A stretch of DNA of 64,000 nucleotides from Escherichia coli (GTDB lineage: Bacteria; Pseudomonadota; Gammaproteobacteria; Enterobacterales; Enterobacteriaceae): assembly GCF_001677475.2 (NCBI RefSeq), contig NZ_CP015229.1; one strand, 5' to 3'. Position 1 is the stretch's first letter, and every line of letters begins with the position of its first letter. Below the pieces are notes generated by a model, which was not told the DNA's origin, did not search any database, and saw only the letters and a list, made by a program, of their open reading frames with translations. A program made the translations under genes and the position numbers. Shown here one piece after another: positions 25,938 to 33,400 of this stretch.

Positions 25938-26588
25938 TCAGAAAATGCGCTCCTGATGCACCCATACCGCTGCTTCCACGCGAGACTTGAGCTTCATTTT
26001 CTTCAGCATGTGCTTGACGTGCACTTTTACTGTGCTTTCGGTGATGTCCAGGCGGCGGGCAATCATCTTGTTCGGCAAACCCTGGGCAATCAGCTTGAGA
26101 ATATCGCGCTCGCGTGGGGTTAACTGGTTAACATCGCGTTCAGTAGTGGCACGGTTAGCGCGCAAGCTGGCGGCCAGAACAGGCGTTAATGCTTCGCTTA
26201 ATACCATTTCGCCAGCAGCTGCCTGATGTAACGCTTTCAGCAGATCTTCCGGTTCCATATCTTTTAACAGATAGCCATCCGCGCCGCGTTTCAGTGCGGT
26301 GACCACATCTTCTTCATGGTTAGAAACGCTGAATACCACAATGCGCCCGGAGAGGGACTTTTCGCGCAGTTTATCCAGCGTTTCCAGACCGTTCATGCCG
26401 GGCATATTGAGATCTAACAGGATCAGATCGGGATCAAGAGATTCCGCCAGTTCAATACCCTGTTCGCCATTACTCGCTTCGCCAACCACGGTGATATCTG
26501 GTGCCATACTGATAAGCTGTTTTACGCCAGTTCGCAGCATCGGGTGATCGTCGATCAGCAGGATAGTAGCCGGTTCCTGATTACTCAT
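25938..26588 (-). CDS. narL: nitrate/nitrite response regulator NarL
   Basis: ORF 25938..26702; start trimmed to [19 protein letters not shown]..., 216 aa; REC + LuxR HTH; AAGGAG RBS. Confidence 0.95.
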
Positions 26589-28377
26589 GGGTATCTCCTT
26601 GGACGTCTGTGAAAGTTTTTTCGGGAATAAAGGTGACCACCACTTCGGTGCCACCTGATTCACGACGGCGGACGCGGCAATCGCCTCGTAAACTTTGCGC
26701 ACGGTCGCGCATTATTATCATGCCGTAGTGATTGCTGCGGATGGCATTTTCAGGCACGCCGCAGCCGTTATCCTGGACGGTCAGTTTGACCTGATTATCG
26801 TTTTGCGCCACCGTCACCACGACCTCACTCGCTTGCGAATGCTTGAGGGCGTTACTTAATGCCTCACGGGCAATTTGCAACAAGTGGATTGCCTGATGCG
26901 AAGGCACCAGACGAGGCGGCAATTGATAATCCAGCTTCACCGGGAAGCCAAATTTGGCGCTGTACTCTTCGCAACTCGCCTCCAGCGCCGGACGTAATCC
27001 AGGCTCGGTGAGCTGCAAACGGAATGTGGTGAGCAATTCACGCAACTGCGCCCAGGATGCATTCAGTTCGTTACGGATCTGACTTAACAGTTCGCGGCTG
27101 CTTTCTGGCAGCGCATCGCCCTGCATCTGTAAACAACTCACCTGCATCTTCATGCAAGAGAGAGATTGGGCAATAGAATCATGCAGTTCGCGCGCAATGG
27201 TGGCACGCTCTTCCATCACGATCAACTGTTGCTGACGTTCCTGATGGCGATCCAACGCCAGCGTGGCGGTGAGTTGTTCAACCAGGGTATCCACCAGTTG
27301 TTGTTGATCATGGCTAAGATGACGCCCCTGCGGCAGGGTCGCCAGCAAAATACCGTACTGCGTATGAGAGTCAGCCAGCCGCCACTTCAGGGTCGTGCCG
27401 CGATCACCAACGGGTAATACGCCGCGCGGGCAGAGCTGGCAGCCTTTATCATCACAAGTCATATCTGGCTGGCAGGTAAACTCCTGATGATTCTCTTCAT
27501 CATCAGTGTCATACACCCGCAGTTCGATATCACGTAGGAGGGTTAAATTCTGTAAGCCGTTGAGTACAGGTGACAGGCGTTCACACAGCGGGGCGCGGGA
27601 ATGCAAACGGCGGTTAGCCTGCCATAAAAAAGAGAGGATCTGATTTTTATGCTCCAGCCCGGCCGTTTTCTCCTGAACCCGCTGCTCAAGTACGGCATAA
27701 CTTTCGGCCAGTTCTGCAGACATATTGTTCAACGCAGTTCCAAGCATCGCCATTTCGTTGCGCCCGCTGATGTTCGCGCGTTGGGTAAAATCGCGATGGC
27801 TGACGGCACTCGCCATTACCAGCAGTTGCCGCCACGGTTGTAGCAGTCGCGCCCGCAACCAGATAATAGTGAACACCAGTAAAAGTGCCATAAATACCGC
27901 CATTACCCGATGGACCAGTACCACTGTCTCAATACGCATTTCCGTGGTGCGGTCAAAACCAGATACCAGCTGATCAAGCCCGGCAACAAACTGGCTGACA
28001 TCCGCTGACACCGTTTCGCGGTTTTGTGCACGCATTAGTGCAGGGATCAGTTCATTACGCCAGTAATCTTGTAAACCCTGTAATTGCGCCAGTTGTCCGT
28101 CTCGTTCTGCTGCTCGGGTTAACTCGGCGCTAAATGCTGTTTGTTCCATCTCTTTAATTAAGGGCTTGTCTTTCTCGCTTAATGGCACTGCTGCCAACAG
28201 ACGGTAACTTTGCATGCGCAGCGATCCCGCTTTGTTGATCGCATGGGCGCTGCCCTGAACGCCTTGCACCAGCCAGCCAGAAACCGCCATCCCTGCTAGT
28301 CCAATAGCAGTAGAAAGCAACACAATAAGCGCAACCTGATTAACCAGGGTGAGCGGAGAGAGACAACGTTTAAGCAT
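26581..28377 (-). CDS. narX: nitrate/nitrite sensor histidine kinase NarX
   Basis: 598 aa; two TM, HAMP, HisKA_3 (ELHDSIAQ), HATPase; overlaps narL by 8 nt. Confidence 0.95.
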
Positions 28378-28642
28378 GCAAACCTCTTCCTTCAGGCTTT
28401 AAATGAGCAATAACCTTAATGAATGTGACGATACATTCTGGAATGGCAGTATTCTCGGCTATTGGCTGAAGTATACCCATACCCGGAAAGAGTTACTCCT
28501 TATTTGCCGTGTGGTTAGTCGCTTTACATCGGTAAGGGTAGGGATTTTACAGCACCGTGAAAAATCTCATAATTTTTATGAAATCACTGTACTCACTATG
28601 GGTAATGATAAATATCAATGATAGATAAAGTTATCTTATCGT

Positions 28643-28656
28643 TTGATTTACATCAA
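28643..28656 (+). promoter_or_regulatory. FNR box TTGAT-TTAC-ATCAA in narK promoter
   Basis: Perfect match to TTGAT-N4-ATCAA, about 60 nt upstream of narK start. Confidence 0.65.
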
Positions 28657-28715
28657 ATTGCCTTTAGCTACAGACACTAAGGTGGCAGACATCGAAACGA
28701 GTATCAGAGGTGTCT

Positions 28716-30107
28716 ATGAGTCACTCATCTGCCCCCGAAAGGGCTACTGGAGCTGTCATTACAGATTGGCGACCGGAAGATCCTGCGTTCTGGCAACAAC
28801 GCGGTCAACGTATTGCCAGCCGCAACCTGTGGATTTCCGTTCCCTGTCTGCTGCTGGCGTTTTGCGTATGGATGTTGTTCAGCGCTGTTGCGGTGAACTT
28901 ACCGAAAGTCGGTTTTAATTTTACGACCGATCAGCTATTTATGTTGACTGCGCTGCCTTCGGTTTCTGGCGCGTTATTACGTGTTCCATACTCCTTTATG
29001 GTTCCTATCTTCGGTGGTCGTCGCTGGACGGCGTTCAGCACCGGTATTCTGATTATTCCTTGCGTCTGGCTGGGTTTTGCCGTGCAGGATACCTCCACGC
29101 CTTATAGCGTCTTCATCATCATCTCTCTGCTGTGCGGCTTTGCTGGCGCGAACTTCGCCTCCAGTATGGCAAACATCAGCTTCTTCTTTCCGAAACAGAA
29201 GCAGGGTGGCGCTCTGGGCCTGAATGGTGGTCTGGGCAACATGGGCGTCAGCGTCATGCAGTTGGTTGCTCCGCTGGTGGTATCACTGTCGATTTTCGCA
29301 GTATTTGGTAGCCAGGGCGTCAAACAGCCGGATGGGAGTGAGCTGTATCTGGCGAATGCGTCCTGGGTATGGGTGCCGTTCCTTGCCATCTTCACCATTG
29401 CGGCGTGGTTTGGCATGAACGATCTTGCTACCTCGAAAGCCTCCATCAAGGAGCAGTTGCCGGTACTCAAACGGGGTCATCTGTGGATTATGAGCCTGCT
29501 GTATCTGGCAACCTTCGGTTCCTTCATCGGCTTCTCCGCAGGCTTTGCGATGCTGTCAAAAACGCAGTTCCCGGATGTTCAGATTCTGCAATACGCTTTC
29601 TTCGGGCCGTTTATTGGTGCGCTGGCGCGTTCTGCAGGTGGTGCATTATCTGACCGTCTTGGCGGAACTCGTGTCACGCTGGTGAACTTTATTCTGATGG
29701 CAATTTTCAGCGGCCTGCTGTTCCTGACCTTACCGACTGACGGGCAGGGCGGAAGCTTCATGGCGTTCTTCGCGGTCTTCCTGGCGCTGTTCCTGACAGC
29801 TGGGCTGGGTAGTGGTTCCACTTTCCAGATGATTTCCGTGATCTTCCGTAAACTGACAATGGATCGCGTGAAAGCAGAAGGGGGTTCTGACGAACGTGCG
29901 ATGCGTGAAGCGGCAACCGACACGGCGGCGGCGCTGGGTTTCATCTCTGCGATTGGCGCGATTGGTGGCTTCTTTATCCCGAAAGCGTTCGGTAGCTCGC
30001 TGGCATTAACGGGTTCGCCAGTCGGCGCAATGAAAGTATTTTTGATTTTTTATATCGCCTGCGTAGTGATTACCTGGGCGGTATATGGTCGGCATTCTAA
30101 AAAATAA
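28716..30107 (+). CDS. narK: nitrate/nitrite antiporter NarK (MFS)
   Basis: ORF 28710..30107; ATG at 28716 gives MSHSSAPERATGAVITDWRPEDPAFW..., 463 aa. Confidence 0.95.
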   Translation: MSHSSAPERATGAVITDWRPEDPAFWQQRGQRIASRNLWISVPCLLLAFCVWMLFSAVAVNLPKVGFNFTTDQLFMLTALPSVSGALLRVPYSFMVPIFGGRRWTAFSTGILIIPCVWLGFAVQDTSTPYSVFIIISLLCGFAGANFASSMANISFFFPKQKQGGALGLNGGLGNMGVSVMQLVAPLVVSLSIFAVFGSQGVKQPDGSELYLANASWVWVPFLAIFTIAAWFGMNDLATSKASIKEQLPVLKRGHLWIMSLLYLATFGSFIGFSAGFAMLSKTQFPDVQILQYAFFGPFIGALARSAGGALSDRLGGTRVTLVNFILMAIFSGLLFLTLPTDGQGGSFMAFFAVFLALFLTAGLGSGSTFQMISVIFRKLTMDRVKAEGGSDERAMREAATDTAAALGFISAIGAIGGFFIPKAFGSSLALTGSPVGAMKVFLIFYIACVVITWAVYGRHSKK

Positions 30108-30130
30108 ATCTTAATATTTGATTATCCTTT

Positions 30131-30157
30131 GCGCGGCATGATGTCGCGCTTTTTTTA
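30131..30157 (+). terminator. rho-independent terminator after narK (GCGCG stem + TTTTTTT)
   Basis: Hairpin and U-run 25-50 nt after narK stop. Confidence 0.75.
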
Positions 30158-30231
30158 TACGTCATTTAGTTACAACATACTAATGTTATATGGTTTATTT
30201 CGCCGGATTTCATTAAGAGCCATTAATATGT

Positions 30232-30261
30232 TACCCATGGGGAATACTCCTTAATACCCAT
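30232..30261 (+). promoter_or_regulatory. cluster of NarL heptamers (TACCCAT, TACTCCT, TACCCAT) upstream of narG
   Basis: Three TACYYMT-like heptamers about 240-270 nt upstream of narG start. Confidence 0.5.
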
Positions 30262-30394
30262 CTGCATAAAAATCTTAATAGTTTAAATAACTACAAGTAT
30301 AAAACGTCTTAATTTACAGTCTGTTATGTTGTGGCTGTTAATTATCCTAAAGGGGTACCTTAGGAATTTACTTTATTTTTCATCCCCATCACTC

Positions 30395-30408
30395 TTGATC
30401 GTTATCAA
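30395..30408 (+). promoter_or_regulatory. FNR box TTGAT-CGTT-ATCAA of narG promoter
   Basis: Perfect FNR consensus about 95 nt upstream of narG ATG. Confidence 0.7.
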
Positions 30409-30499
30409 TTCCCACGCTGTTTCAGAGCGTTACCTTGCCCTTAAACATTAGCAATGTCGATTTATCAGAGGGCCGACAGGCTCCCACAGGAGAAAACCG

Positions 30500-33400
30500 A
30501 TGAGTAAATTCCTGGACCGGTTTCGCTACTTCAAACAGAAGGGTGAAACCTTTGCCGATGGGCATGGCCAGCTTCTCAATACCAACCGTGACTGGGAGGA
30601 TGGATATCGCCAGCGTTGGCAGCATGACAAAATCGTCCGCTCTACCCACGGGGTAAACTGCACCGGCTCCTGCAGCTGGAAAATCTACGTCAAAAACGGT
30701 CTGGTCACCTGGGAAACCCAGCAGACTGACTATCCGCGTACTCGCCCGGACCTGCCAAACCATGAACCTCGCGGCTGCCCGCGCGGTGCCAGCTACTCCT
30801 GGTATCTTTACAGTGCCAACCGCCTGAAATACCCGATGATGCGCAAACGCCTGATGAAAATGTGGCGTGAAGCGAAGGCGCTGCATAGCGATCCGGTTGA
30901 GGCATGGGCTTCTATCATTGAAGACGCCGATAAAGCGAAAAGCTTTAAGCAGGCGCGTGGACGCGGTGGTTTTGTTCGTTCTTCCTGGCAGGAAGTGAAC
31001 GAACTGATCGCCGCATCTAACGTTTACACCATCAAAAACTACGGCCCGGACCGTGTCGCTGGTTTCTCGCCAATTCCGGCAATGTCGATGGTTTCTTACG
31101 CATCGGGTGCGCGCTATCTCTCGCTGATTGGCGGTACTTGCTTAAGCTTCTACGACTGGTACTGCGACCTGCCTCCTGCGTCTCCGCAAACCTGGGGCGA
31201 GCAAACTGACGTACCGGAATCCGCTGACTGGTACAACTCCAGCTACATCATCGCCTGGGGTTCAAACGTGCCGCAGACGCGTACCCCGGATGCTCACTTC
31301 TTTACTGAAGTGCGTTACAAAGGCACCAAAACTGTTGCCGTCACACCAGACTACGCTGAAATCGCCAAACTGTGCGATCTGTGGCTGGCACCGAAACAGG
31401 GCACCGATGCGGCAATGGCGCTGGCGATGGGCCACGTAATGCTGCGTGAATTCCACCTCGACAACCCAAGCCAGTATTTCACCGACTATGTTCGTCGCTA
31501 CACCGACATGCCGATGCTGGTGATGCTGGAAGAGCGCGACGGTTACTACGCCGCGGGTCGTATGCTGCGCGCTGCCGATCTGGTGGATGCGCTGGGCCAG
31601 GAAAACAATCCGGAATGGAAAACTGTCGCCTTTAATACCAATGGCGAAATGGTTGCGCCGAACGGTTCTATTGGCTTCCGCTGGGGCGAGAAGGGCAAAT
31701 GGAATCTTGAGCAGCGCGATGGCAAAACTGGCGAAGAAACCGAGCTGCAACTGAGCCTGCTGGGTAGCCAGGATGAGATTGCTGAGGTGGGCTTCCCGTA
31801 CTTTGGTGGCGACGGTACTGAACACTTCAACAAAGTGGAACTGGAAAACGTGCTGCTGCACAAGCTGCCGGTGAAACGCCTGCAACTGGCTGATGGCAGC
31901 ACCGCACTGGTGACCACCGTTTATGATCTGACGCTGGCAAACTACGGTCTGGAACGTGGCCTGAACGACGTTAACTGTGCAACCAGCTATGACGATGTGA
32001 AAGCTTACACCCCAGCCTGGGCTGAGCAGATCACCGGCGTTTCTCGCAGCCAGATTATTCGCATCGCCCGTGAATTTGCCGATAACGCTGATAAAACGCA
32101 CGGTCGTTCGATGATTATCGTCGGTGCGGGGCTGAACCACTGGTATCACCTGGACATGAACTATCGCGGTCTGATCAACATGCTGATTTTCTGCGGCTGT
32201 GTCGGTCAGAGCGGGGGCGGCTGGGCGCACTATGTAGGTCAGGAAAAACTGCGTCCGCAAACCGGCTGGCAGCCACTGGCGTTTGCCCTTGACTGGCAGC
32301 GTCCGGCGCGTCACATGAACAGCACTTCTTATTTCTATAACCACTCCAGCCAGTGGCGTTATGAAACCGTGACTGCGGAAGAACTGCTGTCGCCGATGGC
32401 GGATAAATCCCGTTATACCGGACACCTGATCGACTTTAACGTCCGTGCAGAACGCATGGGCTGGCTGCCGTCTGCACCGCAGTTAGGCACTAACCCGCTG
32501 ACTATTGCTGGCGAAGCAGAAAAAGCGGGCATGAATCCGGTGGACTATACGGTGAAATCCCTGAAAGAGGGTTCAATCCGTTTTGCTGCGGAACAGCCGG
32601 AAAACGGCAAAAACCATCCGCGTAACCTGTTTATCTGGCGTTCTAACCTGCTGGGCTCTTCCGGTAAAGGTCATGAGTTTATGCTCAAGTACCTGCTGGG
32701 GACGGAACACGGTATCCAGGGTAAAGATCTGGGGCAGCAGGGCGGCGTGAAGCCGGAAGAAGTGGACTGGCAGGACAATGGTCTGGAAGGCAAGCTGGAT
32801 CTGGTGGTGACGCTGGACTTCCGTCTGTCGAGCACCTGTCTCTACTCCGACATCATTTTGCCGACGGCGACCTGGTACGAAAAAGACGACATGAATACTT
32901 CGGATATGCATCCGTTTATTCACCCGCTGTCTGCGGCGGTCGATCCGGCCTGGGAAGCGAAAAGCGACTGGGAAATCTACAAAGCTATCGCGAAGAAATT
33001 CTCCGAAGTGTGCGTTGGTCATCTGGGTAAAGAAACCGACATCGTTACGCTGCCAATTCAGCACGACTCCGCCGCTGAACTGGCGCAGCCGCTGGATGTG
33101 AAAGACTGGAAAAAAGGCGAATGCGATCTGATCCCAGGTAAAACCGCACCGCATATTATGGTGGTTGAGCGTGATTATCCGGCCACTTACGAACGCTTTA
33201 CCTCAATCGGCCCGCTGATGGAGAAAATCGGCAACGGCGGTAAAGGGATTGCCTGGAACACCCAGAGCGAAATGGATCTGCTGCGTAAGCTCAACTACAC
33301 CAAGGCTGAAGGTCCAGCGAAAGGCCAGCCGATGCTCAACACCGCAATTGATGCGGCAGAGATGATCCTGACGCTGGCACCGGAAACCAATGGTCAGGTA

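Follow-up and report, generated by a model that had tools for sequence, protein, structure and literature searches.

The window analyzed here, a 64-kb stretch of Escherichia coli DNA taken at its full length, carries narX, narK and narG in that order, as called from the open reading frame list and from the RefSeq annotation of E. coli loci (Table 1). When a 621-nt query spanning the narK-narG spacer was compared with complete E. coli genomes, 5415 of 5426 matched at 95-99% identity, and the features at these matches are annotated as narK and narG. The length of the intergenic region is 392 nt in the window versus 515 nt in K-12. Over 24 kb (20000-44000) none of the 5426 complete RefSeq E. coli genomes is more than 98.2% identical to the window, which therefore belongs to a lineage of the E. 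coli/Shigella group that has no close representative among those genomes.

Downstream of the narK stop codon, the sequence of the window runs through 23 A/U-rich bases into a hairpin, which is followed by exactly seven T residues. Because the U-tract ends at 30156, the narK 3' UTR is 49 nt long. The original prediction, which had described a UTR of roughly 50 nt with a stable GC hairpin and a 7-U tract, is borne out in each of these particulars. The boundaries that it placed around the segment, 30108-30157, were right at the start, directly after the narK stop codon, and overshot at the end, where position 30157 is an A one base past the U-tract.

Table 1. Features of the narX-narK-narG region, in window coordinates.
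Feature	Position	Strand	Basis
narX	26581-28377	-	ORF list and RefSeq annotation of near-identical E. coli loci
narK, parent mRNA of NarS	28716-30107	+	ORF list; RefSeq nitrate transporter NarK in 98.9%-identical E. coli loci
Predicted RNase E site GC↓AUU in the last narK codons	30092-30096	+	GGCAUUCU fits RN↓WUU; cleavage predicted from the motif
Predicted mature NarS, short form	30094-30156 (63 nt, consensus cleavage) or 30096-30156 (61 nt)	+	Length match to Salmonella NarS-S; 3' end as in K-12 narS
narK stop codon TAA	30105-30107	+	ORF list
Seed AUUUGAUUAUCCUUU, core GAUUAUC(C) at 30120-30127	30116-30130	+	nirC complementarity, conservation, fold
Terminator hairpin GCGCGGCAUGAUGUCGCGC, 8 bp, 6 G-C, loop of 3	30131-30149	+	Terminator scan, fold, covariation
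Seven-U tract, where the transcript ends; expected tail for Hfq binding	30150-30156	+	Window sequence
Site taken to be TerD, Tus-binding Ter site CATTAGTATGTTGTAACTAAATG, G6 intact	30163-30185	-	Core match and terD map position
narG	starts 30500	+	ORF list and RefSeq annotation of near-identical E. coli loci

The hairpin and its U-tract are real structures beyond what chance would provide. Among the terminator-like sites found in 28000-32000 this one is by far the strongest, the other five having 5 pairs each. The 63-nt RNA that would end at this terminator folds with a predicted energy of -13.6 kcal/mol, compared with -7.6 ± 2.4 kcal/mol for shuffled sequences, and 2 of 200 shuffles equal it. 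Across 35 orthologous sequences (32 of them distinct) the pairing of the hairpin is kept in 90% of cells, and both sides of the helix have changed in a compensatory manner at five of its eight pairs. None of 500 shuffles reached such values, and controls in which the hairpin was slid along the alignment were 22-59% paired. We also considered whether the terminator might work in both directions, but on the minus strand no U-tract comes directly after the hairpin, and the idea was rejected. A small open reading frame that overlaps both the terminator and TerD (30129-30254, plus strand, 41 aa, TTG start) had no support and was dropped.

A small RNA at the 3' end of narK is already known. NarS of Salmonella is a 63-nt Hfq-dependent RNA with a conserved single-stranded seed just upstream of a Rho-independent terminator (Wang et al. 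2020, NAR 48:2126, PMC7038943), so the statement in the original prediction that a processed 3'-UTR RNA of this name had been described for narK in enterobacteria was accurate. The K-12 MG1655 reference genome (RefSeq NC_000913.3) likewise annotates the ncRNA narS (b4813, 'putative small regulatory RNA NarS', 1279337-1279520), with its first base 12 nt ahead of the point where the narK stop codon ends and its last base at the seventh U of the terminator. Transferred to the window, this annotation corresponds to a 61-nt RNA at 30096-30156. In an alignment of the window with K-12 the end of narK, the seed, the hairpin and the U-tract are identical, and K-12 has 123 extra bases directly after the stop codon; the last 44 nt of the window segment are identical to the 3' end of K-12 narS. 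The parent gene is a narK ortholog rather than narU; the RNA would be encoded at its 3' end, in sense orientation, and would end at the narK terminator. Its similarity to annotated NarS is thus seen both in the identity to K-12 narS and in the score of a covariance model built from other genera (below). Identity to the Salmonella sequence is inferred through K-12 narS, the Citrobacter orthologs and the text of PMC7038943.

From the sequence and from homology to Salmonella, we hold with high confidence that 30094/30096-30156 on the plus strand is the Escherichia ortholog of NarS in its short, insertion-free form. The proposal that the segment was a candidate NarS is upheld by its position, by its identity to K-12 narS, by a seed next to a Rho-independent terminator and by complementarity to nirC. 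A scan of 29500-30700 against Rfam 15 at a permissive E-value returned no family at its gathering threshold and no NarS/STnc2040 family. The best scores were those of L20_leader (24.9 bits, threshold 58.7), rseX (23.7 bits, threshold 50) and RyhB (19.5 bits, threshold 55). These matches, together with PrrF and Hrs1, are all below threshold and were rejected as identities because a generic hairpin followed by a U-tract explains them all. Genomes that pass through a standard pipeline can lack the feature despite an intact locus, as in the PGAP-annotated genome HH97, where the locus is identical and no narS feature is present. The case also confirms that a genuine 3'-UTR-derived sRNA can be recognized by a reader working from sequence alone, and it fixes the boundaries of NarS and of its seed in the source genome.

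The published target of NarS is the nirC ribosome-binding site, to which the seed in the window is complementary. The seed (NarS nt 23-37) is a perfect 15-nt Watson-Crick complement of K-12 nirC from -13 to +2 (AAAGGAUAAUCAAAU), a stretch that takes in the Shine-Dalgarno sequence together with the AU of the start codon. For Salmonella, the published duplex between the seed and the nirC Shine-Dalgarno region is 14 bp long, with a footprint from -12 to +1 (PMC7038943). The energy of the NarS-nirC duplex, computed on the unstructured 5' part of NarS only, is -21.2 kcal/mol versus -9.1 ± 2.3 kcal/mol for shuffled targets, of which 1 in 2000 was as good. A calculation on the full RNA was set aside, since there the terminator could pair with the target and the duplex would be overstated. 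In the predicted folds the seed is unpaired or weakly paired, and it stands single-stranded directly upstream of the terminator hairpin, as in the published RNA. Since nirC lies outside the window, the complementarity was computed against K-12 nirC. The translation-initiation region of nirC is strongly conserved within the species, with at least 99% identity in 4770 of 5427 E. coli records, so the source strain very probably carries the same target site. The K-12 nirC leader, in the nirD-nirC spacer (locus L003, 4444-4503), also has an extreme U-tract region immediately before the NarS site (UUUUUUAAACUUUUUGUUUUAUUUUUUGUUUUUAUUUUUU), in agreement with the uridine tract and possible Hfq site noted in the NarS paper (PMC7038943).

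The seed is conserved well beyond Escherichia. A NarK scan with one genome per species returned 80 loci, Salmonella not among them. Loci with at least about 81% protein identity and a long spacer after the gene were taken as narK orthologs, and those with about 71-77% identity and narZ directly after the gene as narU paralogs. The sequence (U)UGAUUAUCC, followed by a few bases and then by the GC hairpin and U-tract, was found at 33 narK loci. These come from Escherichia, Citrobacter, Enterobacter, Lelliottia, Leclercia, Kosakonia, Phytobacter, Pseudescherichia, Trabulsiella, Pseudocitrobacter, Pluralibacter sp., Silvania, Entomohabitans, Cedecea and unnamed relatives. At the narK loci of Klebsiella, Raoultella, Kluyvera, Rahnella and P. 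gergoviae the terminator was present and the seed was not found. The distribution of the NarS clade reported in PMC7038943 is the same as the one found in these loci. In all of the 35 aligned sequences, which represent about 15 genera, UUAUC stays unchanged; the G and A that precede it are at least 90% conserved, and the bases further upstream vary freely.

A covariance model built exclusively from 27 non-Escherichia narK 3' UTRs recognizes the RNA in the window. It gave one strong match in the 64 kb, at 30112-30156 on the plus strand (56.3 bits, E 3.5e-10), and the next best match scored 12.8 bits. The 3' end of K-12 narS scored 55.2 bits with the same model, and nothing significant was found in the narU loci or in the narK loci of Klebsiella, Raoultella, Kluyvera and Rahnella. 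The model's weak match of 15.3 bits at the K-12 nirC start region is on the minus strand, where the complement of the seed shows through. In Citrobacter amalonaticus (L013, 2900-2942) a degenerate seed, GUAUUACCC, stands in place of UGAUUAUCC, with both the terminator and TerD intact, and the model score falls to 38 bits; this may reflect a lineage-specific loss or retargeting of NarS.

The likeness to Salmonella NarS (STnc2040) may extend to the way in which the RNA is made. Both segments lie at the end of narK and cover a little more than its 3' UTR; in both, the last narK codons contain an AUUC motif of RNase E type, and a single-stranded U/A-rich seed is directly followed by a GC hairpin and a U-tail. 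The Salmonella narK mRNA is cut by RNase E at UCAUUC, within the last part of the coding sequence, and mutation of this site abolishes NarS-S (PMC7038943). The corresponding motif in the window, GCAUUC, differs at one base, and cleavage at the RNase E consensus RN↓WUU, between G30092 C30093 and A30094 U U, would yield an RNA of 63 nt. The mature 5' end should therefore lie within the narK coding sequence, at 30094-30096, some 12-14 nt upstream of the start given in the original prediction, and the predicted length of 61-63 nt compares with 63 nt in Salmonella. Seed numbering is shifted by 2-4 nt, from nt 21-33 as published for Salmonella to nt 23-37 here, which presumably reflects a difference in UTR length.

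Is an sRNA needed to account for these observations? The simplest alternative is that the segment is the intrinsic terminator of narK and nothing else, and that any 3' fragment released from it is a decay intermediate without a role in trans. The hairpin and U-tract occur at the same place in every narK ortholog examined; because this includes the seedless orthologs of Klebsiella, Raoultella, Kluyvera and Rahnella, termination alone accounts for the hairpin. What it leaves unexplained is an invariant, single-stranded GAUUAUC across about 15 genera between neighbors that vary, as well as the perfect complement to the nirC ribosome-binding site. It also sits poorly with published work, in which a NarS seed mutant of Salmonella loses nirC repression, a nitrite phenotype is described, and E. 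coli RIL-seq supports the NarS-nirC pair (PMC7038943). We regard this explanation as very improbable. Even less credible to us is the proposal that NarS is a primary transcript from its own promoter within the 3' end of narK, rather than a product of processing. Differential RNA-seq in Salmonella did at first suggest a primary 5' end; however, deletion of the narK promoter abolishes NarS there, and a high-copy plasmid carrying 100 bp of upstream sequence produces no RNA (PMC7038943). In the window, a scan for sigma-70-like promoters on the plus strand of 28574-32000 found none, and the RNase E consensus falls exactly at the expected start of a 63-nt product.

A further explanation concerns what lies on the other side of the terminator. 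Seven nucleotides after the last U begins a sequence that we take to be the replication terminus site TerD. The Ter core GNRNGTTGTAAYKA has only one match in the window, on the minus strand at this site. The K-12 narK-narG spacer, at 1.2793-1.2799 Mbp, fits the map position of terD, which is intergenic at 1.28 Mbp in MG1655 (PMC10331603). A strict Ter-core pattern is present at 28 of 44 narK loci, 8-10 nt from the U-tract in 27 of these 28 and 14 nt from it in Cedecea; six further loci have, by eye, the same core with a different first base. A Ter core after the narK terminator thus spans many enterobacterial genera, among them ones without the NarS seed. Transcription of narK approaches TerD from its permissive face, and transcription from the permissive side is reported, in a passage of PMC2095818 that cites Mohanty et al. 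1996/1998, to dislodge Tus and relieve fork arrest. We therefore speculate, from position, that the terminator may also protect TerD.

This can be carried further, to the suggestion that the terminator is kept mainly as an insulator of Tus-TerD and of the upstream part of the narG control region against strongly induced narK transcription, with the sRNA as a secondary use, an arrangement that is compatible with the existence of NarS. The fixed spacing of the Ter core, in seedless genera too, and the reported displacement of Tus speak for such a scheme, but the evidence is purely positional and the conserved seed is left unexplained, and we think it unlikely that insulation is the main function. 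It is similarly doubtful that the NarS/narK terminator and TerD form one conserved functional module. If they did, the terminator would shield Tus-TerD from narK transcription that is induced about 3000-fold, and Tus bound downstream could be a roadblock that sharpens formation of the NarS 3' end.

Returning to the reading of the segment as NarS, we propose that it would act in the source strain as it does in Salmonella, where its accumulation under anaerobic and nitrate conditions depends on Hfq, FNR and NarL, and where NirC is repressed (PMC7038943). By analogy with that system, anaerobiosis and nitrate would lead FNR and NarL to activate the narK promoter, and the resulting mRNA would end at the intrinsic terminator (30131-30156). 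RNase E would then cut at GC↓AUU in the last narK codons and release an RNA of 61-63 nt. The terminator hairpin and U-tail are expected to be the Hfq-binding module, through which Hfq would bind and stabilize the RNA. As predicted from the pairing described above, the seed could then form a perfect 15-bp duplex over the Shine-Dalgarno/AUG region of nirC. On the Salmonella model alone, this would block nirC translation and speed the decay of the processed nirC-cysG transcript, with nirBD unaffected. Repression of NirC, the nitrite importer, may in this way limit the re-import of nitrite while NarK exports it.

Such a circuit follows the logic of other RNase E-processed, Hfq-dependent 3'-UTR sRNAs, among them CpxQ, SdhX, MalH and OppZ (PMC9438474). 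In these RNAs, as in NarS, the terminator of the parent mRNA is the Hfq-binding module, a short conserved seed lies upstream of it, and one mRNA regulates another within a single pathway. Their parent genes, seeds and targets are different, however, and there is no sequence relationship to NarS.

To the NarS-nirC circuit itself our analysis adds nothing biologically new. The additions to the published account (PMC7038943) are modest, namely that about 55% of complete E. coli genomes carry a short NarS like that of Salmonella, that the insertion in K-12 is an ERIC element, and that the terminator abuts TerD. K-12 narS and the RNA in the window share their locus, their 5' start relative to the narK stop codon, their seed, their hairpin and their U-tract, but the K-12 RNA is annotated at 184 nt with a 123-nt ERIC and that of the window would be 61 nt long without one. 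The K-12 element, an ERIC/IRU sequence between the narK stop codon and the seed (locus L002, 2350-2472), matches the ERIC2 primer at 20 of 22 positions and is inserted at a point corresponding to the gap between 30107 and about 30112 of the window. It has been reported that an insertion near the stop codon lengthens K-12 NarS, with quoted values of a '170-nt insertion' and an RNA of '~230 nt' (PMC7038943), versus 123 nt in the sequence and 184 nt for the RefSeq narS.

The ERIC insertion is present in 2457 of the 5416 complete E. coli genomes that matched, and the short form is therefore the slightly commoner allele of the species (about 55:45). The allele in the window is of this short kind and resembles Salmonella NarS-S. 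For the 184-nt RNA of K-12, the predicted fold has the ERIC pairing with itself and the seed free. As a smaller possibility, the short and ERIC-containing alleles may differ in the processing or dosage of NarS. Four Citrobacter species (L010, L011, L012 and L078, at about 2893-3025) have an ERIC in the same gap between stop codon and seed, in the opposite orientation and with seed and terminator preserved, and this difference in orientation indicates that insertion into the gap has been independent and recurrent.
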